DNA of 64,000 nucleotides from Candidatus Woesearchaeota archaeon. GTDB taxonomy: Archaea > Nanobdellota > Nanobdellia > Pacearchaeales > GW2011-AR1. The notes under the pieces are model-generated. The model did no database searches. It had not been told where the DNA came from and saw only the letters and a list, made by a program, of their open reading frames with translations. Numbering within the stretch: the stretch's first letter is position 1; each line of letters begins with the position of its first letter. Made by a program: the position numbers and the translations under genes. Shown in pieces: positions 34,302 through 48,326 of the stretch. The stretch is from the NCBI GenBank assembly GCA_964514585.1, contig CAZETU010000001.1:50523-114522 (forward strand), read 5' to 3'.

Positions 34302-35604
34302 TCACAACCCCCAGCAATCTAAACAAAGTTTTTCACGAGGCAGACCTATAGCCTTTTCAAGAATCTCAACGTCAGCGAAATGCAAACCATCAAGCCCCCG
34401 AGTATCTCTAATCTCCTCAAGACTCATACATTTCGCAATACAATCCTCATCATTCTTAATTGATTTACCATACTTACAAGCAGCAACCAAAGGCGGGCAA
34501 GCAATAATAGCATGAACCTCCTTAGCCCCCAAATTCTTCAATCTCTGCGTCTGCTTCCGAGTCTGATTCCCCTTAACAATCGAATCATCAACAATAATAA
34601 TTTTCTTATCTTTAATCAATTCCTTAACGGGAATCAACTTTTCATCAGCAACCTGATGCTGTTCTTCAAGAGTACTTGGAGTAAAACTCCTTCCACTATA
34701 ATCAAATTTCTTAAAAACCTCTAAATAAGGAATCCCCGACGCATTAGCAAACCCAGTGGCATGACATCTCCCTGAATTCGGAATCGGAGAAACCAAATCA
34801 GCATCAATCTTGTATTTCTCCGCCATTAAAGCCCCAATTTTATTTCTAACAAGTTCAACACTTTTACCGTCAATAATAGATGCTGGATGTGCCGTATAAA
34901 TCCACTCAAAAGTACCATACCTAATATTTTTCAAATCAAACTGAGCAACAAAATTAATCCCATCCTCATTCAATAAAACAACCTCTCCAGGCCTAACATC
35001 TCTAACAATTTCAAACCCAGTATTAATAAAAGAAACACTCTCAGAAGACACCGCGTAACTCCCATCTTTCTTACCCAAAATCAAGGGCTTCCTCCCCCAT
35101 CCTCGCGCCGCATAAATTCCCTCAGGAGTAAGCGCAACCAAAGCAAAATCTCCCTTCACCTGCTCAAACAAACTCTCAATACCATTCTCAAAATTAAACT
35201 CTTTAGATATTATTTTAGAAATCAAAACAGCGTCACTAATTTCCTCAGGATTATGATACCCAGAAAAACTCGCCCCACCCTTCAATAGATTATTCTTCAC
35301 CTCAAAATAATTAAATATATTCCCATCAACACAAAGAATCATACCCCCCCCTCCTGGCTAATTCCGAAACAGGCTCTCTACTCCCAGAAACACAGGCTAT
35401 AGCATAGCTCCCCTTCATCCAATCTTCCTTCCTTGAAAAGTTTTCACGGAAAAGCCCTTTGTGTGTAGTATTCTTCAACTTTCCATTAGAATTTTTCCAT
35501 GCCAACCCACAATAGTCCTCACAACGATTCTGTAAATAAAAAACTCCAGAAAGAGCATCTCGAATACAATCTTTCTTAGAAACCACCCCAAAAATTCCTG
35601 ACAT
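34302..35604 (-). pseudogene. purF: Amidophosphoribosyltransferase (PurF)-like gene split by a frameshift in a G8 run
   Basis: ORFs 35326..35604 and 34302..35342 join if one G is removed from G8 (35344-35351); IVDDSIVKG PRPP motif and Fe-S Cys ligands are present. Confidence 0.8.
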
Positions 35605-35695
35605 AAAAGAAAAACGAGGAAACCCTATTTAAATAAAATTATCCTCCACTATCTACTTAAAAATAAAAAAATAAAAAAAATTAATTTGGTTTGGT

Positions 35696-36274
35696 TTAGT
35701 CCTTCCAAGCAGCAACGCCGATCAAAACTAAATGAGCAATTATTGACAACAAGTAAATAATTATACCAATTCCAGAGCCAGCAAGAAGAATCAAAAAGCC
35801 CAAAACAGAACCAATAATCGGAACAAGTATCCACCATCCTGGCTTACCTACTACCTCATATGTTTTCCAGTGCCAAATAATCGTCATTACTCCAAAAAGA
35901 ATAAATCCAACAATCATAATAGCCGGAGCTACAAAAAGAAACGCCCCTGAACCAGAAATACCCAATAATAGCAATATATAAGCAAGAACCGTTGATCCAG
36001 CAAGTGCCAAAAACGGCCACCATTTAGCTTTCGCAGCCTCAAAAATCACAGCCAAGGGTCCACCATAAGGCATCCACGCAATACCCGGACTTCCAATACT
36101 AGCTTTCTCTCCTATCTTAGAATAAGCAAGAGCAATATAAACATATATACCAAACCCGACCAAAATCATCAAAATTCCAAGACCCAACATAGGACCAAGA
36201 AGATTCAATGTCATACCGTCACCACCAGGAATCATGCTAGTCGCAAAACCTGTTAATCCATTAACAACATCCAT
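35696..36274 (-). CDS. Multi-pass membrane protein
   Basis: Hydrophobic ORF, GKPGWWILVP motif. Confidence 0.7.
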   Translation of the reverse strand: MDVVNGLTGFATSMIPGGDGMTLNLLGPMLGLGILMILVGFGIYVYIALAYSKIGEKASIGSPGIAWMPYGGPLAVIFEAAKAKWWPFLALAGSTVLAYILLLLGISGSGAFLFVAPAIMIVGFILFGVMTIIWHWKTYEVVGKPGWWILVPIIGSVLGFLILLAGSGIGIIIYLLSIIAHLVLIGVAAWKD

Positions 36275-36340
36275 AAAATATACCCCCTTTCACAGAATTA
36301 AGTATAAATCACATTATAAAAAACTATCCAATTCTTACAC

Positions 36341-37297
36341 TTACTTAAAATTCTTAGAAGCACTAAATAAAGCTAAAGTTTCAAACAAAAACACAGAGAG
36401 CCACCCCAAAGAAATCCCCCTACTAATCCAAATTAAAGAATTAAACCCACCCGTAAAAAACATTGTAATAATTTCCATAGGATTAGATAGTAAATAGAAA
36501 ATATATCCCAAAAACAATAAAGCAAATAGCCCAAAAATAATTCCCAAAATCGAAGAGACAAAAGAAAATTTAACTTTAGATTTAATAGACATAAGAGTAA
36601 CAGAGAAAAACCCACGAACCAAAATCATAAGAGCGAAAAATCCAAAAACAAGTATCATCTTCCAACCAATCAAAGAGGGTACTGCTGTGTTAGCAAAAAT
36701 GGAATCCACTCCCCCACCAATATCATCGGAAATCCCACCTAGGTTAACGGGCTCATAAGTTACAAGTCCAGTCATAGATGGATTAAGCCCAAACCCACTA
36801 ACAAGATTTTGTACATAAAAAACAAGCACTATAAATATAATCGCAGCCAAAGCAATAAAAATAATATTAATAATAGAGGAAACTCTCACCCACTTAGACT
36901 CTACCTTCTGCCCAATTTTAAAAAACCCAAAAAAGTAAAAGCCCAAAAGCACCATAAAAAACAAAGTAAGTAAAATCTGAACCCATATATTAATAGAACC
37001 CAAAGAAGGAGAAATATCAAACAGTTCAGCAATAAAACCAAGAGCCATTAACCCAACAAAAACACATCCAATAATAGCCGCAAACTTAATCCACTTAACA
37101 CCCTCAATTTTTCCACCCTTAGACTCCAAATGAGGAACTAAATCTTCAGACTCAGAATCCAATTTTTTAATAGCCTCATTACAATCAGCCTCAGAATAAC
37201 CCCTAGAAATAACCTGCTTCTTTAATTCCTCTAGGCCATATTTCTCTCTATTATCTTTCAAATAATTAAAAACAATATCATTCACCACACTAAACAC
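36341..37297 (-). CDS. Multi-pass membrane protein with N-terminal soluble domain
   Basis: 318 aa, about 6 TM segments. Confidence 0.7.
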   Translation of the reverse strand: MFSVVNDIVFNYLKDNREKYGLEELKKQVISRGYSEADCNEAIKKLDSESEDLVPHLESKGGKIEGVKWIKFAAIIGCVFVGLMALGFIAELFDISPSLGSINIWVQILLTLFFMVLLGFYFFGFFKIGQKVESKWVRVSSIINIIFIALAAIIFIVLVFYVQNLVSGFGLNPSMTGLVTYEPVNLGGISDDIGGGVDSIFANTAVPSLIGWKMILVFGFFALMILVRGFFSVTLMSIKSKVKFSFVSSILGIIFGLFALLFLGYIFYLLSNPMEIITMFFTGGFNSLIWISRGISLGWLSVFLFETLALFSASKNFK

Positions 37298-37325: not shown

Positions 37326-40300
37326 TCACTTAGCATCACAAGTCATCACATTCTTCGCGATAAACGAATTCCCATATTCCTCATCCTCAACATACTTCCC
37401 AGAAAGTTTAACCGCATCCCCTTCCTTAATCCGTCTATCACTCAACGCCTCACGAAAATCATTAGGGAAAACCGTCACCTTCAACTCACTCGATTTAGAA
37501 CTTATATCCATAAACGCCATATCATCCCCATTCTTCGTCACAATCTGCGTGTACCTTTTAACAATCCCAAAAATATCCGCCTCCATATCATGCTTCAAAC
37601 TTTCAAAAGAAGTAAAATCCCCATTCTTCGCCTCATGATAAGCATCAATCTGATGACCACTAACACAAGCACCCAAAAGTTCACATTCTAAATCCAATTT
37701 AACCTTCAATTTCATCGGCGGCAAATCCGGATATTCAACAACATTCGCAACCCCACCAAACAAAGTCATCTGTTTCTCGGCAGCGTTACTATGCTTCTCA
37801 ACCCTATCATAAACTTCCAATAAGCTCGCCCGATTAATCCCCATATCATCAAAACACCCAACACTAATCAAAGAATGGCAAACCCGCTTATTCACCTTCG
37901 ACAAATCAACCCTATTCACAAAATCCTGATAACTCTTATATGGTCGACCCTCCATAATCTTCACCATCGCTTCACCCCCTACATTCTTAATCCCAGACAA
38001 CCCAACACGAATCAATTTGCCCGTTTTAGATGGAGATTCGTCAGAATCTCCTATAGGGGGTACGCCCGTGCGTGTCTCACCATCGACTTCGGGCTCACCA
38101 GAGTCATGTCCGCCGAGGACCTCAACGCTAAAATCCTCCCGAGAAGTATTAATATCAGGATGCAAAATCTTAATCCCCTCACTTCTAGCCGACTCTAAAT
38201 AAAAGGCCAACTTATCAGGATCACGAATCGCCGACGAAATTGTAGCCGCAAAAAATTCAACAGGATAATATTTCTTCAAATAAGCAGTTCGATATGAAAT
38301 CAAAGCATAAGCGGCCGCATGACTTTTATTAAAACTATAAGCCGCAAACTTCACAATATCATCCCACAACTTATCAACAGCAACCCTCTCCATCCCCGAA
38401 TGATTTATACAACCATCCTTAAACTGAACCTCCATCTTATGCATCAAATCAATCTTCTTCTTCCCAATTGCCTTCCTCAAAACATCAGAATCCCCAGCAC
38501 TAAAACCAGCCAACGCCCTCGACAACTGCATCACCTGTTCCTGATAAACCATAATGCCATAAGTCGGCGCCAAAATTTTCTCAGCATTAGGATGAACATA
38601 AACAACCTCCTCTTTCCCTGCCTTTCGATTTGCATAAGCAGGAATATACTGCATTGGACCCGGACGATACAAAGCACCAATAGCAATAAGATCATCAAAA
38701 CGATCAGGCTGCACCTGTCTCAATGTCTTTCTCATTCCCTCACTTTCAAATTGAAAAACTCCAATACTTTTCTCTTCTCGCAACATCTTATAAACCGAAT
38801 CATCATCCATCGGCAAATTTTCCAACCACTTATCATCCTTACCAATCGCATCCAAAACTTTCTTAATAACATTCAAAGTCTCTAAGCCCAACATATCAAA
38901 CTTCACCAAACCATAAGTCTCAATATCGGGCCCCTCAACCTGAGTAATCACATCCCCATGCTTAGCATACGTCGGAATATATTCATTAATCCCTTCCTTC
39001 CCCCAAACAACACCACAAGCATGAACGCCCTTATGCCGGACACACCCCTCAAGCCTAGAAGCAATCTCAAAAATTTGCTTATACTTTTCTTTAAAATTAT
39101 TTAGCTGTGCAGCGTCATCAGTTGGCTTTCCATCCTCACGGCAAGCTTCCAAGCTTTTCTTAATCGTTTTCTCATTAACCAACTTGGTAATCGCATTAGC
39201 CTCTTCAAACGGAACCCGAAAAACCCTCATGACATCTTTCAAAACCGACTTCGCACTCATTGTTCCAAAAGTCCCAATCATCGCAATCTTTTCCTTACCA
39301 TACTTCTTCCGAACATAATCCAAAACAACATCCTTATCCCCAAAGTCAACATCAAAGTCTGGTAAAGAAATCCTATCAGGATTCAAAAAACGCTCAAACA
39401 ACAAACCCAACACCAACGGATCCAACTGCGTAATCCCAAGACTATAGGCAACAATCGAACCAGCACCACTCCCCCGACCAGGACCAACTTGACAAAATTT
39501 CTTAGCCTCCCGAATAAAATCCGCAACAATCAAAAAATAAGTCTCAAACCCCATCTTCCCAATAACGTCCAACTCAAAATTCATCCGGTCAATAGCCTCC
39601 TTGTAATTCTCCTTATCTTTATATCTTTCATCAAGTCCTTCTTTACACAACTTATACAAATAATCTTTATGGCTCATTCCATCGGGCGCGTCAAAATGTG
39701 GAAAAATAGGCTCACCCATATCCAACTCAACATTACACTTATCCGCGACCTCACAAGTATTCGAAATCCACTCCTGGTTATCTCCAAACTTCTCCAACAT
39801 CTCATCCTCGCTCTTCACCCAATAACCCTCTCCACTAAACCGAAACCGTTTCTCATCATCCATATTCCCATTCGTCCCAACCGCCAACATAACCTCGTGT
39901 GCATAAGCATCATCTTTTTTCAAAAAATGAGAATCAACCGTCGCAACAACCTTCAAACCATACTCCCCACCCATCCTCTTATAAAAATCAACGACCTTCG
40001 CCTCCTCGGCAATCCCATGATTCTGAACCTCTAAATAAAAATCCTCCTTCCCAAAAACATTAATATAATCTTCAATCAACTTTTTAGCCTTTTCTTCATC
40101 GTTATTATTAACCGCCCTAGCAATATCATTCGCAATACAAGCACTCATACAAATCAACCCCTTAGAATGTTTCCTCAAAAAATCCATATCAATCCGCGCC
40201 CGATAATAAAACCCCTCGTTATTAGCAGTCGAAACAAGCCGAACCAAATTCTTATATCCCTCTAAATCCTTAGCCAACAAAATCAAATGATAATTAGGCA

Positions 40301-40538
40301 TGTCCTTATCCCGCGACTTCATATCCTTAGTAACATAAGCCTCAAAACCAAAAATCAACTTCACTCCAGCCTTCTTAGCCAACTGATACTTCTTAACAAC
40401 CGCCCCCATATTCCCATGCTCAGTAATAGCAACCGCACTCTGACCCAACTCCTTAACCCGATCAAATAACTCAGAAATCTTCGTAGCCCCATCTAAAAGA
40501 GAATACTCAGTATGCAAATGCAAATGCGTAAATCCCAT
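37326..40538 (-). CDS. dnaE: DNA polymerase III alpha subunit (family C, DnaE type)
   Basis: PHP HLHLHTEYSLLDG; GRGSGAGS; PDFDVDF and KFDMLGL catalytic Asp motifs; YSFNKSHA; C-terminal OB fold. Confidence 0.97.
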   Translation of the reverse strand: MGFTHLHLHTEYSLLDGATKISELFDRVKELGQSAVAITEHGNMGAVVKKYQLAKKAGVKLIFGFEAYVTKDMKSRDKDMPNYHLILLAKDLEGYKNLVRLVSTANNEGFYYRARIDMDFLRKHSKGLICMSACIANDIARAVNNNDEEKAKKLIEDYINVFGKEDFYLEVQNHGIAEEAKVVDFYKRMGGEYGLKVVATVDSHFLKKDDAYAHEVMLAVGTNGNMDDEKRFRFSGEGYWVKSEDEMLEKFGDNQEWISNTCEVADKCNVELDMGEPIFPHFDAPDGMSHKDYLYKLCKEGLDERYKDKENYKEAIDRMNFELDVIGKMGFETYFLIVADFIREAKKFCQVGPGRGSGAGSIVAYSLGITQLDPLVLGLLFERFLNPDRISLPDFDVDFGDKDVVLDYVRKKYGKEKIAMIGTFGTMSAKSVLKDVMRVFRVPFEEANAITKLVNEKTIKKSLEACREDGKPTDDAAQLNNFKEKYKQIFEIASRLEGCVRHKGVHACGVVWGKEGINEYIPTYAKHGDVITQVEGPDIETYGLVKFDMLGLETLNVIKKVLDAIGKDDKWLENLPMDDDSVYKMLREEKSIGVFQFESEGMRKTLRQVQPDRFDDLIAIGALYRPGPMQYIPAYANRKAGKEEVVYVHPNAEKILAPTYGIMVYQEQVMQLSRALAGFSAGDSDVLRKAIGKKKIDLMHKMEVQFKDGCINHSGMERVAVDKLWDDIVKFAAYSFNKSHAAAYALISYRTAYLKKYYPVEFFAATISSAIRDPDKLAFYLESARSEGIKILHPDINTSREDFSVEVLGGHDSGEPEVDGETRTGVPPIGDSDESPSKTGKLIRVGLSGIKNVGGEAMVKIMEGRPYKSYQDFVNRVDLSKVNKRVCHSLISVGCFDDMGINRASLLEVYDRVEKHSNAAEKQMTLFGGVANVVEYPDLPPMKLKVKLDLECELLGACVSGHQIDAYHEAKNGDFTSFESLKHDMEADIFGIVKRYTQIVTKNGDDMAFMDISSKSSELKVTVFPNDFREALSDRRIKEGDAVKLSGKYVEDEEYGNSFIAKNVMTCDAK
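38022..38120 (+). repeat. 99-nt in-frame, hairpin-rich insertion within dnaE
   Basis: Adds 33 aa between FSVE and GKLIRVG; three consecutive hairpins with loops GTCA, CCGT and ACCA. Confidence 0.6.
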
Positions 40539-40639
40539 CCTAAAAAAAACAAAAGACCCTTTAAATTTATTATCGTGCTACTAAATAATTACAAACAAAA
40601 AATATTATACAAAAAATTAATCTTTAAAAATTCACTTCA

Positions 40640-41134
40640 CTAATAACTAGAATCCCACTTACCAATACTATATTTCCTTTCAAAAAATTCCATAAACTCT
40701 TTATTGCTCGCTATATTTTGGAATATTTCATCTACGTCCATAGACCCTAATTTAGGATGATTTTTATATTTACTAGAAACAACCCTAAGGGGGTAGTTTG
40801 GATAAATTAACTTCAATAAATCAAATAATAGCTCAGTATCATGTAATTCATCACCATCTCCTTCGCCCAATAAATCTGCCTCCTCAACCCAATTTTCAAA
40901 TTCAGCTATTACTTTTGTTTGAGTTAAGGTATCCTTTCCTATGGTTTCTTTTTTAATCCAATCAATAATTTTTTTATGTAGTGATGGAATCATATGAGCA
41001 TGCTTACAACAACACCAAGAGCTCAAATAATTAAAAAATATTTCTGATCTATAATAATTTTCTTCATTTAAAAATTCTTCAACAATCTCCTCATCAACAA
41101 TAAAAATTTCCTTACTCTCTTTAGGAAATTCCAT
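40640..41134 (-). CDS. Hypothetical protein, possibly PIN-like
   Basis: N-terminal FIVD, later GDGDELHD..LL and LRVVS, the spacing of PIN acidic motifs; AT-rich. Confidence 0.4.
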   Translation of the reverse strand: MEFPKESKEIFIVDEEIVEEFLNEENYYRSEIFFNYLSSWCCCKHAHMIPSLHKKIIDWIKKETIGKDTLTQTKVIAEFENWVEEADLLGEGDGDELHDTELLFDLLKLIYPNYPLRVVSSKYKNHPKLGSMDVDEIFQNIASNKEFMEFFERKYSIGKWDSSY

Positions 41135-41140
41135 TATTAT

Positions 41141-41392
41141 TTAGAAATCAAACTTCTTATTAAGAAGCCCAGCACTTGAAATTGCATCTCTAAAACCATC
41201 TGTGGGTTTCTGTGCTCCTTTAATCTCTCTAGTAATCATTCTAAGTGGGGAATTCTTCACAACCATTATTTCTAAAAAATCCTCCATACCCATCTTTCTT
41301 GCAATTCTCTCCGCAGGAGAGATAGAACTACCTTTAACAATAGTAATACTCTTAACTTCCGAATCTTTATTTAATTCCATAAGATTTTCCAT
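41141..41392 (-). CDS. Small hypothetical protein (possible partner of 40640..41134)
   Basis: 83 aa, 6-nt gap to the downstream gene. Confidence 0.45.
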   Translation of the reverse strand: MENLMELNKDSEVKSITIVKGSSISPAERIARKMGMEDFLEIMVVKNSPLRMITREIKGAQKPTDGFRDAISSAGLLNKKFDF

Positions 41393-41551
41393 AGAATTTA
41401 TGATATAAACCTTTCGGTCACCCCTTTTATTAAATCACTACAAATATCTAACTTTAAAAAACTTATGATGAAATAATTTTTATTGTTAGAATTCATACTA
41501 TTTTCAGGTAACACGTGTATTTATATTTTTCTTTTTTATAGTACTATACAC

Positions 41552-44500
41552 TCAAAACTCCCCCAACTTCGCGTCCTTCTCACCCTTCCCAAAAATCGAT
41601 TCAATATACATCCGCGTTAACTCAACCCCTTCCTTAGTATAAGACGACAAATTATAATTCTTAGTCAAGCTCATTGCCGAATCCAAATACTTCTTTATCG
41701 ACCCCTCACTAATCGTAAAAATAATTCGGCCCCCACACTTCGTACAAACCCCACTCAAAGGCGGCCTCCGAAATTTCTCATTACAACTACTACACCTAAA
41801 CTGCTGCCGCGCAAACTTCCTCAAATTCCCACGAATATCCCTCAAAAAATGCCTCTCCAAAATAAGTCTCGCAACATCATCAGTATCAACCGCCCGAATC
41901 TTCTTAACCAAATCCATCTGCGCATCAACCTTCTCCTTCATCGTCGGCAAAATCTTATACGCCCCATTATTATAACCCAAATTTAAATCACTAGTATCAT
42001 GCGTAAACCCTGCTCCAATAAACGGTTCGCCTTCCTTCATCTTATCCCGAACCAACTCAACGTCTTCTGCCATCACAGAATGCACCCCTTTCTCAGCCAA
42101 CCTATAAAAATCCAAACTATACCCACTCCCCGTATCAAGAAACAAAATCTGATCATCAACTTCACTAGCCCGAATCCTAGAATTCAAAACCAACGGCGCA
42201 TCCTGACTACCTCCACGATGCCCAGGTAAAAACTTCCTAGAAAAATTCAACAAAACATCCATCAACAACATCACAGCAGCCTCGTCCCCATCACAATCCC
42301 GCCGAATCGCCGCATGCATATAAGGACTAGCAACAATCCCCTGCATCTCGCTCCACCCAATAATCCGACCAATAACTCCCGCGCAATTATGCGGCGCCAT
42401 ACAAACAACCAACCGCCCAACCAAATCCTCCTTCGACTTCAAATTATAATATTTATCCATCTTGTAAAACCGCGCCAACTCCTCATCAACAAAATTCGCA
42501 ATATTCAAAAAAACATCATCCGCCTTCTCGTCCTTAGTCACAGAACACGACGGCATCACAATATCATGCGGCTTCAACTCCAAAACCTGATCATCCTTCA
42601 ACAACTCCTCCCCATGAATATCCTTATCATAACCAAGACTCTTCAATTTCTCAATACTAACCCGAATCTCAAACGGCTTAAAATGCGTCAACGGAATCTC
42701 AGTCCCATCATACCGAACCGTCCCATCCTTATTTACAGACAAATTAAACTTCGCCCTCAAAATCCCCTTCGCTAAATTCTCCGGGACATAACTATTATTA
42801 TTCAAAGACTTAACCCCTTTAACCATCGGCGGCACCTCAAAATCCTCATACCCAAGCAAAGCCCGCGCCGTCGCAAAATAATATTTAACGTCAATTTTCC
42901 TATTTGAAAAATCAAAACAATTATCATGCAATTTACAAATATCATCCTTATTCTCAAAACAGCCCCGACAATGATAAGATTTCAAAACACTCCCCCCACA
43001 TTTTTCACAAGAAGGATAAATCGTCTCATCTCCACATTTTTCACATTTACGAAGCGGCCAATTAGACTTCACAAACCCAGCTTCAACAGCATCTTGCACA
43101 CTCCTCAGCCGACCACCCTGATCACTAACAGGGAACAAAACATTCGGACTCCCAGTCAAATGCCGAGGCTTCGCCTTCTCCGGCCGACCCATCCGCGCCC
43201 CAATAAAACTCCCAGCCTTATCTTTAATCTTAAACTTCGACAACCCATTAACAACTTTCAAAACATCACCATCAAAATCCCCCTCCAACTTAAACATCTC
43301 CCCATCCATCATAAAATCCCGGCCCAAATTAACCAACAGAGCCTTCGCATCGTCACTAATCACAACATTATCCAAAACAATAGAATGTTCAATTCCTAAA
43401 ATTTCCAAGGCCCGTTTCGCCTTACCATAATTCTCCCGATTAGATTTCTCCCACGGCAAAACCAACTTACCATTCTCACCACCTCGCCAAACACCCTTAT
43501 TCAACCATTCGGCCAAAGCCAAAAAATCCTCATTCATAATCTGCGTCCAATAAAAAATATAACGCGGATGAAGTGGAATAGAATATTTCAAACTAACCCT
43601 CATCGCCTCCTCGGGTGAAACAAAAAACTCGGGAGCCTCACCAGTCACATCCAATTTCTCCTTCAATTCCAAATCCCACCACTCTTCAACATAGCCAGGC
43701 CGCAACAAATCAGAATTTCTGTCCATTACATCCCCTACTGGAAACAACATATCCCCAAGATAAATAATCTCATCGACCTCTCCATAAATTTTCTTCGCCT
43801 CCTCAAAATTACTAATTCTCTTCACCGACCCATCCTTCATCTTCACAATCGGTCCATCAATACCATCATTCGAAGTAATAATACAGCCCTTCGTTGGCTT
43901 CTCAATTTTCAACTGCGTTCCATTAGACAAAAACCCATTACTAATCCCCATCGTCGCAGGATGAACAGACACCGCGCTAAACCCACTCGTTCGCCCTCGA
44001 CCATATCGAATCCGAAAACCACCACTCCTCGACGGATGCCCATAAACCGGACGCCCCGCAACTAAATCCTTAATATAAGTCGCAACAACTTCCTCGTCGC
44101 CTCCCTCCCGTTTCTTATGTAACTCCAAATACCCAACCAACCAATCCCAACCAGTACAAACCAACTCATTATCCTTAACACTCTTCAAACGACCAAGCGC
44201 CTTCCCAGCCTTCTGCGCCAACCCCTCACTAAAAGCCAGACACATCCCACCCCGAATAAAATTAGTATGCACCCGCGGCAAATCCTTATAATTCGAAACT
44301 TCTAATCTACTAGTAGGATCCCCATCAATTTGAAATGGCAAATGACTCGCCAAAAAAGCCATCTCCTCTTCCGTCGGAAAATACTGCAAGTTAGTAACCC
44401 TCTCATGAAAATCAGTATTCTCGGTCACATACCTCTTAACCTCCTCTCCACTCGGATCAAACTTAGCATAACCAAAATGCTCCCGCAAATAATCAATCAA

Positions 44501-45007
44501 CATCAAAACAACACAAACCGAAGTCGTCCCAGCCGAACGAATCGGCCCACTAAAACTCGCGATAAAATAATCCTTACCTTCTCGGGTTTTCCCCAATCTC
44601 AAACCCGTATAACCCTCAATCGGCGGAACCACAACCCCCAAAGTCATATAAGCAAAACCAACCCGAATCCCAGCATCAATCGCCTCCAACTGATCCTTAA
44701 ACTTACCAAACTTACCCTCGGCAATCTCCCGCGCAATCACAAAACTAACGGTCGTATCCAACTGTCCATACATCCCTTCCAGCTCCCCCATCCTTTTAGA
44801 AATCCTCTCAATAGGTAAATCAGGATAAACAACCGCAACCAAACGAACAGCCTTCTCAGTCATAGTCACAGCCAACGGCGATTCAACTTCTTTAACAGGA
44901 TCCAACCCCTTGCTCCGAGCCTCACTAGCAACTTCATACTCCTTAATCACTTGAGCCTCTAAATCCGCAAAATATTTCTCACTATCCCACTTATACAAAT
45001 CATTCAT
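41552..45007 (-). CDS. polC: DNA polymerase D large subunit (DP2)
   Basis: GPIRSAGTT, DLVAGRP, FIGARMGRPEKAK, RRDCDGDE catalytic motif, C-terminal Zn finger; start probably 45007. Confidence 0.98.
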   Translation of the reverse strand: MNDLYKWDSEKYFADLEAQVIKEYEVASEARSKGLDPVKEVESPLAVTMTEKAVRLVAVVYPDLPIERISKRMGELEGMYGQLDTTVSFVIAREIAEGKFGKFKDQLEAIDAGIRVGFAYMTLGVVVPPIEGYTGLRLGKTREGKDYFIASFSGPIRSAGTTSVCVVLMLIDYLREHFGYAKFDPSGEEVKRYVTENTDFHERVTNLQYFPTEEEMAFLASHLPFQIDGDPTSRLEVSNYKDLPRVHTNFIRGGMCLAFSEGLAQKAGKALGRLKSVKDNELVCTGWDWLVGYLELHKKREGGDEEVVATYIKDLVAGRPVYGHPSRSGGFRIRYGRGRTSGFSAVSVHPATMGISNGFLSNGTQLKIEKPTKGCIITSNDGIDGPIVKMKDGSVKRISNFEEAKKIYGEVDEIIYLGDMLFPVGDVMDRNSDLLRPGYVEEWWDLELKEKLDVTGEAPEFFVSPEEAMRVSLKYSIPLHPRYIFYWTQIMNEDFLALAEWLNKGVWRGGENGKLVLPWEKSNRENYGKAKRALEILGIEHSIVLDNVVISDDAKALLVNLGRDFMMDGEMFKLEGDFDGDVLKVVNGLSKFKIKDKAGSFIGARMGRPEKAKPRHLTGSPNVLFPVSDQGGRLRSVQDAVEAGFVKSNWPLRKCEKCGDETIYPSCEKCGGSVLKSYHCRGCFENKDDICKLHDNCFDFSNRKIDVKYYFATARALLGYEDFEVPPMVKGVKSLNNNSYVPENLAKGILRAKFNLSVNKDGTVRYDGTEIPLTHFKPFEIRVSIEKLKSLGYDKDIHGEELLKDDQVLELKPHDIVMPSCSVTKDEKADDVFLNIANFVDEELARFYKMDKYYNLKSKEDLVGRLVVCMAPHNCAGVIGRIIGWSEMQGIVASPYMHAAIRRDCDGDEAAVMLLMDVLLNFSRKFLPGHRGGSQDAPLVLNSRIRASEVDDQILFLDTGSGYSLDFYRLAEKGVHSVMAEDVELVRDKMKEGEPFIGAGFTHDTSDLNLGYNNGAYKILPTMKEKVDAQMDLVKKIRAVDTDDVARLILERHFLRDIRGNLRKFARQQFRCSSCNEKFRRPPLSGVCTKCGGRIIFTISEGSIKKYLDSAMSLTKNYNLSSYTKEGVELTRMYIESIFGKGEKDAKLGEF

Positions 45008-46514
45008 CTTTAACCCCCACTTTACAGTCACTAAGCTCACAAATCAAATCCTCACCAGTCTCCCACTTCACATCATCATCCCCAGAAAAATCAACAATCT
45101 TAACTTCCCTAGTCTTCAAATTAACCAACGGCACCTTACAAGGATCCGGCACATTCCCAACCTTTTCCTCAAACGGAGTCATCGACTGCCAACACGAACT
45201 CGAAACCAACAAAATATTATTATAACTACAAATCTCCGCCCGATGCTGATCCGCCGTCGCAACAATATCCGGCACAACATCAATCACCAAAGGATCCTTC
45301 TCCTCACAAGGAATATAATCCATCACCCCATGCATCGGAGCCAAATGCCGCCGCTTCAACATCTCCTTCACAACCCTCGTCGGATTCCCGTGCCCGCTCT
45401 CGACCCGAATATCATCCATCTGATTAATAAAACGATTTATACTCGCCCCGTGATACATCAAAACCTTAAACCCGCCCCCAATCTCAACCAAAGCCGGATT
45501 AGTAACTAAATGCAAATTCTCCATCTCATACAACCCCGGCGCCCACTTCCGCGAAATCATAGGCTGCGGCTCACCCAACCAAACCGAATCGTGCTGCCCC
45601 GGACACATAATAATCTCAACATCCTTCCGAATCAACTTCAACAACTCCTCAACCTTCCGATACTGCCCCAAAGACGTCTTAATATTCAACCACTTATCCT
45701 GATCCGCAAAAATCCCAACCCCATCAATATTATCCCCAGTCAAAAACAAATACTTAACCTTCATCGCAATCGCCCTCTGCCTATCATCCCCAACCCCACC
45801 ATTCAACCACTTAATAAATTTCAACAAATTCTTCTCTAAAAACATCGTCGACCCAGTATGAAAATCCCCACTAAAAGCAACATACTCATCAACATTCCCG
45901 TGCCGCTCCTTCTCCAGCCCCGCATCAGGATAAATAATATCACTCACAAACAACATCTTCCCCGTCCCCGAAACCCGAAACGCAACAATATCGTCAACCA
46001 ACAAATTCTTCGCCTTCTCAAAAACCTCCCGCCGATCCTGGTTAACCAAGACAACACTATTCCCCGTCAAATCCTCAACCTCAAAAAGCATATTCTTATT
46101 CTTAGTAATCCTCTTATCCGTCACCGCTGCAATAATCGTACAAACAATATTATTAGAATCAATTTTCCGAAGCGAACTCAAATTATCAAACCCCCTCTCC
46201 TCTAAAATCCCCTTCAACACCCCATAACGATACCTAAAATGATTAATAAAATCCTTAACCTCAATCTTCCGCTGCGAAAAACTAACCGACGAAATCAACT
46301 TCACAGACCCCTCATTATCAACCTTCACACCCCCAAACTTATCAGAATAACTCAAAAACAAACTCCTAGTCACCAAACCCCTATTAATACCCATCTTCTC
46401 AAACGAATCAATAACCTTCTCAGCGACCCCCTCATCCATCCCAGAAAAATATTCCAACATCTCTTTATCTAAAAGATATCCCATTTCCCTGCAAAGCTTC
46501 AATATTTCTACCAT
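45000..46514 (-). CDS. polB: DNA polymerase D small subunit (DP1, proofreading exonuclease)
   Basis: OB fold plus calcineurin-like motifs GDFH, GDNIDG, PGQHD, YHG, HLAP. Confidence 0.95.
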   Translation of the reverse strand: MVEILKLCREMGYLLDKEMLEYFSGMDEGVAEKVIDSFEKMGINRGLVTRSLFLSYSDKFGGVKVDNEGSVKLISSVSFSQRKIEVKDFINHFRYRYGVLKGILEERGFDNLSSLRKIDSNNIVCTIIAAVTDKRITKNKNMLFEVEDLTGNSVVLVNQDRREVFEKAKNLLVDDIVAFRVSGTGKMLFVSDIIYPDAGLEKERHGNVDEYVAFSGDFHTGSTMFLEKNLLKFIKWLNGGVGDDRQRAIAMKVKYLFLTGDNIDGVGIFADQDKWLNIKTSLGQYRKVEELLKLIRKDVEIIMCPGQHDSVWLGEPQPMISRKWAPGLYEMENLHLVTNPALVEIGGGFKVLMYHGASINRFINQMDDIRVESGHGNPTRVVKEMLKRRHLAPMHGVMDYIPCEEKDPLVIDVVPDIVATADQHRAEICSYNNILLVSSSCWQSMTPFEEKVGNVPDPCKVPLVNLKTREVKIVDFSGDDDVKWETGEDLICELSDCKVGVKDE

Positions 46515-46578
46515 CCAAAATCGAGGAATCTACAACTCAATGGAGTTTGTCCTCAGTATTACCTTATTTTACTTATTT

Positions 46579-47793
46579 TTAAAGCCCCAACGACTCAATA
46601 AGAATCGCCTCAACTTTATCAAACAAATTCGACGGAACTGACAACCTAATTTCACGCGTCCTACCATGCCGTCCCTTCGAAATGACCTTCGCATTAATTA
46701 AACCCAACATATCAATCTCAGCCAAAATATCACTAATCCTCCGCTGAGTCAAAGAATCCGTCTTCGTATCATCACAAAGCCCCTGATAATAATTATAAAC
46801 ATCCCCAGTAAAAAACCTATCAACACCCTGGTCCTTAAATTGCTTCGTCAATTGCAATATAGAATACAAAACCAGCTGAAACTGCTTCGGCTCCCCTTCA
46901 ACAATATCCAAAATCTTATCCCGTTCCATTTTCATATTCGCCAAATCAATATAATCCTCCCCAATCAACTCCTTACCTTCCCTCTCACTAAGCTCCCCAG
47001 CAATCCTAAGCAAATCTAACGCTCTCCTGGCATCACCATGTTCCCTCGCCGCATAAGCCGCACACTTCGCAATAACACCGTCAGCAACAGTATTCTCCTT
47101 AAACGCCTCCTCACATCGATCTTTCAAAATATCTTGCAACTGAATCGCATTATAAGGATGAAAAACAAACTCTTCCTCACCCAAACTCGACCGAACCCTA
47201 GGGTCAATATTCTCCAAAAAAGTCACCTCATTAGAAATCCCAATAATCGAAATCTGAGCCAAACTCAATTCCTGATTCAACCTCGTCAAAGAATAAAGAA
47301 AATTATCACTCATCTTCTTAATCGCCTGATCAATCTCATCAAAAATAAAAACAATCAACTGCTTCTTACTATCAACCAACTCAATAAACTTAGACCAGAC
47401 CTGATCCGTCGGCAATCCCGTTGCGGGAACTGAGCCCCCAAGCTGATGAATCAAAGCCGCCAAAATTCTATACTCAGTATCAGCAACCTTCTTCAACTTA
47501 CAATTCAAATATTCAAATCTCACATTAACATCCAACTCAATTGATTTCTTAACCAACTCATTTCTAACATACTCAACAGAAAGCGTTTTTCCAGTTCCCG
47601 TTTTCCCATAAACAAACAAATTACTGGGCCTCTCTCCTCGAAGCGCCGAAGCTAAAATTTCAGCAATTGATTTAATCTGCTCATCCCTATGGGGTATCGA
47701 CTCGGGTGTATAACGAACCTGTAACACACTTTTATTCTTAAAAAGACTATTATTAACAGCCGAATCAAAAATCTCACCCAACTCAACACCCAT
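46579..47793 (-). CDS. cdc6: Orc1/Cdc6 replication initiator
   Basis: YGKTGTGKT, FDEID, GDARRALDLLR, C-terminal wHTH GRHGRTR. Confidence 0.97.
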   Translation of the reverse strand: MGVELGEIFDSAVNNSLFKNKSVLQVRYTPESIPHRDEQIKSIAEILASALRGERPSNLFVYGKTGTGKTLSVEYVRNELVKKSIELDVNVRFEYLNCKLKKVADTEYRILAALIHQLGGSVPATGLPTDQVWSKFIELVDSKKQLIVFIFDEIDQAIKKMSDNFLYSLTRLNQELSLAQISIIGISNEVTFLENIDPRVRSSLGEEEFVFHPYNAIQLQDILKDRCEEAFKENTVADGVIAKCAAYAAREHGDARRALDLLRIAGELSEREGKELIGEDYIDLANMKMERDKILDIVEGEPKQFQLVLYSILQLTKQFKDQGVDRFFTGDVYNYYQGLCDDTKTDSLTQRRISDILAEIDMLGLINAKVISKGRHGRTREIRLSVPSNLFDKVEAILIESLGL

Positions 47794-47865
47794 TCTTCAC
47801 CACCATAAAACAAAACCACATCTAAACTATTTAAACTTTCATATACTAGAAGACATAACCCCAAC

Positions 47866-48187
47866 ACCCCTACTTCTCTTGGAATTAAAACTCTACTTCT
47901 TTATTAATATTAAGACAAAAATAATCAAAATCTCCTCGATAAATCAATTTTATTAATAATTAACCCTCACCCCCCTATTTCCTCTCCAAGAGAAATCTAA
48001 AATTCAAATTTTTTTAATAGAATCCAAAGTATATACTACAATATATCCATCATAACATACTATATTTAATAATATATAATATAATATATATAATATATAA
48101 TATAAATATTTATAAATAAAAATTAAAAAACAAAAACAAAAAAGTCCCCAAAAACTTTAAAAAACTTTCTATGAGAAACCAAGGGGT
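47866..48187. promoter_or_regulatory. Putative oriC with ORB-like boxes flanking an AT-rich unwinding element
   Basis: Minus-strand TTCCAAGAGAAGTAGGGGT (47866-47884) and TTGGAGAGGAAATAGGGGG (about 47970-47989); plus-strand CTCCAAGAGAAAT (47984-47996) and TTCTATGAGAAACCAAGGGGT (48167-48187); near-pure A/T tract about 48060-48130; directly upstream of cdc6. Confidence 0.8.
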
Positions 48188-48326
48188 CACAGGTAAAATC
48201 ATAAATTAATACATAAATATCAAAATATCAACCATTTTTAATAAAAATAAAACAAATTACTTCACTACTTCTTTTTAATAAAAATTCGAAAGAAAGATTT
48301 ATAAACAATTTACATTTAAACAAACT

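Follow-up and report, generated by a model that had tools for sequence, protein, structure and literature searches.

A bacterial-type C-family DNA polymerase encoded beside the cdc6 and PolD genes of a Pacearchaeota lineage

We analysed a 64,000-nucleotide stretch of archaeal DNA (the window; G000:C1:50523-114522) from a metagenome-assembled genome (MAG) labelled Candidatus Woesearchaeota archaeon (GCA_964514585.1). In this window, dnaE, a gene for a C-family DNA polymerase (Pol III alpha), lies beside the genes for Orc1/Cdc6 and for both subunits of the D-family polymerase PolD. C-family polymerases are regarded as bacterial, and the D and B families as archaeal. The genome comprises 1.04 Mb on 18 contigs and is an estimated 89.65% complete and 0.54% contaminated. 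Its closest proteins are labelled Candidatus Pacearchaeota or Nanoarchaeota, both groups of DPANN archaea. The gene and the features of its product, in positions of the window, are as follows.

37326..40538, minus strand: dnaE, C-family DNA polymerase (Pol III alpha) of 1070 amino acids (aa), with PHP, palm/thumb/fingers, HhH and OB regions; the C-terminal tau-binding domain is absent
39927..40526, minus strand: PHP region with nine metal ligands (H7, H9, D16, H41, E66, H84, C134, D202, H204), a predicted intrinsic 3'-5' proofreader
39342..39362, minus strand: PDFDVDF, with catalytic D394 and D396; aligns to PDIDTDF of Thermus aquaticus (Taq)
38883..38903, minus strand: KFDMLGL, with the third catalytic Asp, D548; aligns to KMDFLGL of Taq
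38019..38117, minus strand: insert of 33 aa, Gly/Asp/Glu/Pro-rich and of low complexity (residues 808-840, between the fingers and HhH regions)
37758..37772, minus strand: QMTLF, a bacterial-type (QxxLF) internal clamp-binding motif (residues 923-927, in the loop between HhH and OB)

A preliminary description of this DNA had called dnaE full-length, with all three catalytic Asp residues in PDFDVDF and KFDMLGL, and the open reading frame (ORF) bore this out by both equivalog and fold match. Four Pfam families (PF02811, PF07733, PF17657, PF14579) scored far over their cut-offs, in the domain order of Pol III alpha: PHP at residues 5-174 (5e-52), DNA_pol3_alpha at 292-551 (1e-80), fingers at 554-712 (3e-58) and HHH_6 at 788-906 (9e-24). 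The OB match at 989-1054 was weak (19.6 bits vs a cut-off of 27). The NCBIfam DnaE equivalog NF004226 reached 1139.8 bits against a cut-off of 1002. Its alignment spanned model positions 5-1063 of 1146 and the chain stops after the OB domain; the tau-binding tail is therefore missing. Scores for the error-prone DnaE2 model NF004225 (552.5 bits vs 939) and for the PolC models (171-186 bits vs 873-1043) fell below their cut-offs. PF07733 matched this gene alone in the window genome.

The closest solved structure was the Pol III alpha of Taq (E = 6e-217). An AlphaFold2 (AF2) model, built with 48 archaeal sequences in the alignment, had a predicted local distance difference test score (pLDDT) of 80.2 and contained a beta-barrel at 985-1067. 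Foldseek gave TM-scores of 0.69-0.72 to 2HPI, 3E0D and 7PU7, and the model superposed on the alpha subunits of Taq, M. tuberculosis and E. coli.

C-family polymerases are defined by a Pol-beta-like palm with three catalytic Asp residues (D401, D403 and D555 in E. coli). We compared the corresponding residues in an alignment of archaeal and bacterial DnaE rows (A1), in an alignment of 48 archaeal rows that are 60-80% identical (A3), and in a locus comparison set of 31 species-level genomes with DnaE at the PolD locus (26 unfused and 5 with DnaE fused to the PolD large subunit DP2). D394, D396 and D548 were invariant in A1, in A3 and in every complete DnaE row of the 31 genomes, and the nine PHP ligands were invariant across the same sets. 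An intact PHP site is a mark of self-proofreading DnaE1 and PolC; its loss is typical of DnaE3 and of most DnaE2 (Timinskas et al. 2014, PMC3919608). In the clamp motif, Q923 and L926 were invariant and F927 was present in at least 90% of the 48 archaeal DnaEs; KQxTLF was kept in the 31 genomes. The loop carrying it (914-940) was modelled at pLDDT <50, as expected of a short linear motif. The 33-aa insert was specific to this genome, relatives' alignments breaking at 810-841, and was predicted to be disordered (pLDDT <50 at 809-839). The gene is thus intact, and it most likely encodes a functional bacterial-type C-family polymerase.

The replication genes upstream of dnaE are:

41552..45040, minus strand: PolD large subunit DP2, 1162 aa, catalytic loop RRDCDGDE intact
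45000..46514, minus strand: PolD small subunit DP1, 504 aa, phosphoesterase motifs GDFH / GDNIDG / PGQHD / YHG / DQH
46579..47793, minus strand: Orc1/Cdc6, 404 aa, the sole copy in the assembled genome

The N-terminal, central and catalytic Pfam domains of DP2 were matched at 1e-69 to 4e-109. All of these genes lie on the minus strand and dnaE follows DP2 after a gap of 1013 bp, in agreement with the earlier statement that it is co-oriented with PolD and about 1 kb downstream. The order (133-aa ORF)-(102-aa ORF)-cdc6-DP1-DP2-dnaE-(YbjQ)-(TctA) was repeated in independent assemblies. dnaE immediately followed DP2 in 31 genomes (26 unfused, 5 fused) from at least four genera, at least three of which are further genera within the family. 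Since many independent assemblies share this gene order, there is no chimeric join at dnaE; the preliminary description had named such a join as an outcome that would undo its reading.

Across the order, PF07733 was detected in 23/301 genomes, nearly all in the family of the window genome. In a tree of 155 DnaE rows, the archaeal sequences formed a single clade (support 100, stem 0.46; 19 rows unfused, 8 fused, 2 with inteins) that fell outside all 123 bacterial DnaEs sampled. Comparison with a tree of Cdc6, DP1 and DP2 showed that all major clades were common to both and that 13/25 splits were identical. On the host tree, DnaE-less genomes fell into a single nested clade plus another, small group, and dnaE is present in the outgroup genera. 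In these genomes YbjQ or TctA follows DP2 after 139-722 bp, with no detectable DnaE remnant. The most economical history would thus be one gain and two later losses. Since the DnaE tree mirrors the host tree, we infer one old gain: dnaE would have been gained once, long ago, by an ancestor of this Pacearchaeota lineage, would have taken the final place in the cdc6-DP1-DP2 block, and would have been inherited vertically since. The preliminary description had proposed an ancient transfer kept in the replication neighbourhood, and monophyly, a host-congruent tree, host-like composition and a fixed position in 31 genomes all agree with it. Median identities to the window proteins, each measured in 17 genomes of the genus, were 83% for Cdc6, 74% for DnaE, 67% for DP2 and 59% for DP1. 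By this measure the acquired gene is slower-evolving than either native replicase subunit.

We also looked for a donor. The best bacterial identities to DnaE were 37-46%, from many phyla, among the matches listed, and phage records reached at most 40%; no donor was singled out. A search of 50%-representative proteins returned only the archaeal clade above 47% identity. Nesting among recent bacterial or phage sequences, the other outcome that would have undone the earlier reading, was not found, bacterial and phage identities being at best 37-46% among the matches listed. The next branch to the archaeal clade consisted of two intein-bearing sequences with HNH (P0122 and P0123). Their metagenomic contigs (L202 and L203, 10-15 kb) carry small, co-oriented ORFans and are virus-like; they may be viruses of DPANN archaea. 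A viral route of dnaE into the lineage is possible and unproven. Inteins were present in DnaEs P0020, P0070, P0122 and P0123. Two further DnaE genes stood apart. Genome G020 carries a second, divergent DnaE-like gene (L066, G020:C9) of 1144 aa, with 31-44% identity to the window DnaE over a three-piece alignment. The DnaE of G305 (L108, G305:C119) nests among Candidate Phyla Radiation (CPR)/Parcubacteria sequences, a position that suggests a separate transfer or contamination.

In five genomes (G006, G073, G139, G200 and G285), DP2 and DnaE formed one reading frame of 2153-2367 aa. This frame encodes a complete DP2, an acidic or Lys-rich linker of 40-150 aa and a complete DnaE from its normal N-terminus. 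The DP2::DnaE fusions fell into eight protein clusters at 90% identity, drawn from NCBI, JGI, ENA and Logan, on contigs of up to 382 kb. The fused forms were monophyletic in both the DnaE tree and the host tree and make up a sister clade. A search of the open-access literature found no paper describing a DP2::DnaE fusion. The operon position of dnaE and these fusions in relatives favour the view that DnaE probably works alongside PolD.

We then surveyed other replication genes in the window genome and, for PolB, DnaN and the DEDDh exonuclease, in 49 genomes of the genus. The window genome encodes a PolB of 802 aa, and PolB was present in 48/49 genus genomes irrespective of DnaE; this overturns the suggestion in the preliminary description that DnaE might stand in place of PolB. 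The best solved relatives of this PolB were those of Thermococcales (1e-125), and its assignment to the bacterial Pol II-like 'B7' group (PMC7544198) was rejected on comparison with E. coli Pol II (1e-34 vs 1e-125). PCNA, RFC-S, RFC-L and MCM were all present. Within the 89.65%-complete window genome, DnaN (TIGR00663) had no match, the best matches to DnaX (TIGR02397) were RFC subunits (84 bits vs 250), and DnaB_C stayed under its cut-off. None of the 49 genus genomes (0/49) exceeded the DnaN cut-off. One weak DnaN-like ORF (70 bits) was seen on a 3.3-kb contig (L110, G017:C32) of the DnaE-less genome G017. By these gene inventories, DnaE did not arrive with a bacterial replisome. A DEDDh (epsilon-like) exonuclease (C2:130110-130658) was considered as a co-transferred proofreader and rejected; it occurs in 30/49 genus genomes, many of them without DnaE.

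We assessed the state of PolD in the genomes that carry DnaE. The DP2 loop RRDCDGDE was intact in every genome, fused ones included, and matches D956 and D958 of P. abyssi (PMC4996933). In DP1 of P. abyssi, H451 of the GNHD motif is essential for nuclease activity (PMC4996933). The equivalent His was Arg in 5/5 fused genomes and Tyr or Asn in the unfused G001, G314, G317 and G287, and the motif-IV His was Tyr or Ser in G001, G003, G004 and G314. Loss of one or the other was thus seen in 5/5 fused genomes and 6 unfused DnaE carriers, and in 0/19 genomes without detected DnaE. This pattern is no more than suggestive of a tie between DP1 His loss and the presence of DnaE. DP1 was the most diverged protein of the block, at 36-41% identity to that of the window in the fused clade.

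The window DP1 retains both His residues. Of the phosphoesterase motifs, DxH, GDxxDG, the PGQHD His, HG and xQH are all present in it, and two ligand positions deviate. Genus-wide (50 relatives), with DnaE or without it, Gln replaces the metal-binding Asn (PGQHD) and (A/G)D replaces GH in the last motif (AD here). The DP1 nuclease of the genus may already differ in its working from that of Pyrococcus. In three relatives (L093 of G315, L094 of G241 and L095 of G013), DP2 carried a ~1.4-kb interruption at its catalytic loop, the position at which the P. abyssi DP2 intein is known to lie.

Strand composition in the window genome was extremely asymmetric, which is not the case in other families of the order. 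Contig mean GC skew was about ±0.3; at 4-fold sites GC skew was ~0.6-0.7, with AT skew of opposite sign. The sign was bound to the DNA strand, genes of the other orientation showing the mirror image. As both gene orientations share the same DNA-strand sign, the skew is not tied to transcription and is not a codon preference. The preliminary description had read a G/T-rich codon bias common to dnaE and DP2 as a sign of long residence. The shared bias stood (4-fold GC skew 0.70 and 0.85, respectively), but as a property of the DNA strand and not of codon choice. Among the host genes of that strand dnaE ranked at the 52nd percentile; its composition is thus fully host-adapted. About 68% of coding bases were on the G+T-rich strand, and the cdc6-polD-dnaE block was always on that strand in genomes with clear skew.

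We saw no skew switch anywhere in the 344-kb window contig. In the relative G314 (4 contigs, 809 kb), no contig showed a sustained sign reversal, C3 having one near-zero island; cdc6 lies mid-contig there, on a 222-kb contig. Either the origin lies elsewhere or replication is effectively one-directional. The small contigs C8-C18 of the window genome lacked the host skew (C15 has 52% GC), and a 60-kb stretch of G314 (G314:C3:120000-180000) had no skew and lower GC. These skew-free regions are probably recently acquired or foreign DNA.

Absolute 4-fold skew, measured on sampled 10-20 kb stretches in contrasts that are not independent of one another, had the following group medians.

Unfused DnaE carriers (26 genomes): 0.63
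Clade that lost DnaE (9 genomes): 0.32
Fused genomes (3 genomes): 0.24
Other families of the order, no DnaE (13 genomes): 0.09

Exceptions occurred on both sides (G020 with DnaE at 0.10; G008 without DnaE at 0.67). The tree gives only 2 independent contrasts for DnaE against skew and for DnaE against DP1 decay. The link between DnaE and extreme GC skew is weak, a lead and not a finding. No paper linking DnaE to skew was found in the searchable literature, nor an open-access paper linking Pacearchaeota with GC skew.

The spacers of the locus are:

40539..41551, minus strand: DP2-dnaE spacer, 1013 bp, with two ORFs (40640-41134, 164 aa; 41141-41392, 83 aa) absent from relatives
47794..48298, no strand assigned: spacer upstream of cdc6, rich in A and T (GC 19-24%); palindromic A/T run (48061-48114); two direct repeats of 15 nt (47784, 47862)

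Some 20-30 nt ahead of the dnaE ATG there is a TATA-like run, ATAAATTTAAAG. The spacer upstream of cdc6 had a median GC of 18% in 31 relatives, and we found no change in the sign of GC skew at it. The preliminary description had placed an oriC in this block. The AT-rich spacer (GC 19-24%, 47.8-48.3 kb) is a plausible origin by its composition, but the lack of a skew switch there does not support that placement. An element at about 47800-47830, just before the cdc6 start (AGTATATGAAAGTTTAAATAG), was conserved in 13-16/31 relatives and is probably the cdc6 promoter (TATA/BRE), not an origin-recognition box. On the other side of dnaE, about 3 kb separate it from YbjQ (34302-37297) and hold a truncated PurF-like gene and ORFs of 92, 192 and 318 aa. 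This block was absent from most relatives, with a weak PurF-like match in G012 only. We considered the spacer and downstream ORFs (164, 83, 318, 192 and 92 aa) as accessory subunits and rejected them; relatives lack them, and they had no family, PHROG or Atlas relatives.

The preliminary description had inferred a second replicative or repair polymerase. We give an even chance to the first of these in a more specific form, in which DnaE would be a self-proofreading second polymerase working with PolD in chromosomal synthesis on the archaeal replisome. DnaE would act beside PolD in an MCM/RFC/PCNA replisome without bacterial partners, and would probably be held on PCNA through the retained QxTLF motif. 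We infer activity at the fork, coupling to PolD in unfused species, use of PCNA and a share in synthesis from the genes themselves. Several observations weigh against such a role. DnaE is dispensable, being absent without remnants from a nested clade of ~12 genomes (one of them 100% complete) and from another small clade. Every genome has an intact PolD catalytic loop and nearly all have PolB, so that nothing calls for DnaE at the fork. In the window, 1 kb separates dnaE from DP2 and dnaE has a TATA-like element of its own, an arrangement that does not imply co-transcription. The association of DP1 decay with DnaE amounts to at least 3 events and 2 phylogenetically independent contrasts, with no statistical power. 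An extension of this role, in which PolD and DnaE split the strands of the fork and the split (or the replication mode of DnaE) causes the strand-bound mutation bias and frees DP1 to decay, on the way to one replicase family supplanting another, is unlikely. It would be in keeping with the group medians of 4-fold skew (0.63 in unfused carriers, 0.32 in the clade that lost DnaE, 0.09 in sister families without it), with a skew bound to the DNA strand and not to gene direction, and with the missing switch at the sole cdc6 locus.

Some of the same observations would fit a DnaE that serves in repair, gap filling or damage tolerance as a mere neighbour of PolD, without bulk replication. At least 2 clean losses of DnaE came without loss of PolD or PolB, the tau-binding C-terminal domain is absent as in DnaE2, and dnaE has its own TATA-like element in the window genome. 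However, the nine PHP ligands that DnaE2 and DnaE3 typically lack are kept (PMC3919608), the error-prone model NF004225 scored 552 bits against 939, and the flanks hold no conserved accessory genes, the neighbours in relatives being YbjQ and TctA. A whole clade, moreover, has DnaE fused to the replicative DP2, and DnaE is better conserved than DP2 and DP1. We regard a repair role as the next most likely reading, but as rather doubtful. It is quite unlikely that DnaE has instead become the main synthesising enzyme while PolD turns into a scaffold, in parallel to the eukaryotic replicases. That scenario has a published eukaryotic counterpart (PMC7544198) and would account for the loss of the DP1 active-site His solely in DnaE carriers, all fused lineages among them, for DP1 as the fastest-diverging protein (36-41% identity in the fused clade), and for the single DP2-DnaE polypeptide of one clade. 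It conflicts with a DP2 loop (RRDCDGDE) conserved in all genomes, fused ones too, with the retained His of the window DP1, and with two clades that lost DnaE when none lost PolD. It is very unlikely that dnaE is what remains, domesticated or still selfish, of a virus or mobile element and serves that element, not the chromosome. In 31 genomes dnaE occupies one and the same chromosomal position, flanked by DP2 and YbjQ/TctA, and conserved mobile-element genes are lacking beside it; the composition of dnaE is that of the host, and the DnaE tree is congruent with the host tree. The sister branch P0122 and P0123 (inteins, HNH) on viral-looking ORFan contigs, the inteins in some members of the archaeal clade, and the phage genes reported near such a dnaE (Castelle et al. 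2021, PMC8204110) speak for this reading. Finally, an assembly chimera or bacterial contamination is almost certainly the wrong explanation; beyond the fact that the genome is an 18-contig MAG, we found no support for it, and it is contradicted by identical gene order in dozens of independent assemblies, by host-type strand skew running continuously through dnaE, and by a 344-kb contig with archaeal genes on either side.

Overall, this lineage has long kept polymerases of the C, D and B families, with a bacterial enzyme in the PolD operon that is fused to PolD in some relatives. It offers a natural test of whether the replicase of one domain of life can be adopted by the replisome and clamp of another. 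It is also a present-day counterpart of the polymerase exchange from which eukaryotic replicases have been proposed to arise.

The pairing of dnaE with PolD is itself already known. Castelle et al. (2021, Front Microbiol, PMC8204110) reported DNA polymerase III (fam03494) beside both PolD subunit genes in two Pacearchaeota, which answers the question, raised in the preliminary description, of how widely such genes had been reported in DPANN. The gene, its neighbours and the lineage are the same, and the window is a further instance. That account consists of one paragraph and a tree; it called the sequences highly divergent, noted phage genes nearby and suggested transfer via phage. Absent from that account are lineage-wide synteny, losses, fusions, active-site conservation, the missing bacterial partners and the decay of DP1, all of which are seen here.

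Among bacterial enzymes, the window DnaE resembles DnaE1 (Taq 2HPI/3E0D/4IQJ; M. tuberculosis 5LEW/7PU7), at 36-44% identity and a fold TM-score of about 0.7. Both have the nine PHP ligands, the three catalytic Asp residues, an internal QxxLF and the OB domain. Unlike DnaE1, 91% of which carry the tau-binding C-terminal domain (Timinskas et al. 2014, PMC3919608), the window DnaE lacks it, and its archaeal host has no detected beta clamp, DnaX or DnaB. Lack of this domain is common to DnaE2 of the ImuA/ImuB cassette; here, however, the PHP site is intact and the neighbours are PolD, YbjQ and TctA. DnaE3, the partner of PolC, has a defective PHP site, whereas the site is intact here and no PolC was detected in the window genome. 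Similar to this lineage, Bacillota with PolC and either DnaE3 or DnaE1 have two replicative-type polymerases per cell (PMC3919608, PMC3814617), and these two-polymerase genomes likewise have strong strand asymmetry and gene-strand bias. They differ in that the partner here is the unrelated D-family PolD, the window PHP site is intact, unlike that of DnaE3, and a division of labour between the archaeal enzymes would be conjectural.

For the strand disparity, the closest published likeness is the Microgenomates (CPR) bacterium Ch65, which like its relatives has a whole-chromosome GC skew of one sign (C 29.8% vs G 15.0%) and whose proposed mode of replication is unidirectional (Kadnikov et al. 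2020, PMC7143001). The disparity in the window lineage is similar (contig means of ~0.3), with no switch over hundreds of kb. Ch65 is a bacterium with a closed genome, whereas the genomes here are fragmented, so that a switch at contig ends is possible, and their AT skew is also strong. An architectural parallel lies in the eukaryotic replicases, which combine a B-family catalytic module, a C-terminal domain derived from DP2 and an inactivated DP1-like B subunit (PMC7544198, PMC4996933). In both cases a foreign catalytic polymerase is joined to parts of PolD, and catalytic residues of DP1 are lost in lineages of the newcomer. In the archaeal case, however, the newcomer belongs to the C and not the B family, the DP2 active site is kept, and in the window the genes remain separate and the DP1 His is retained.

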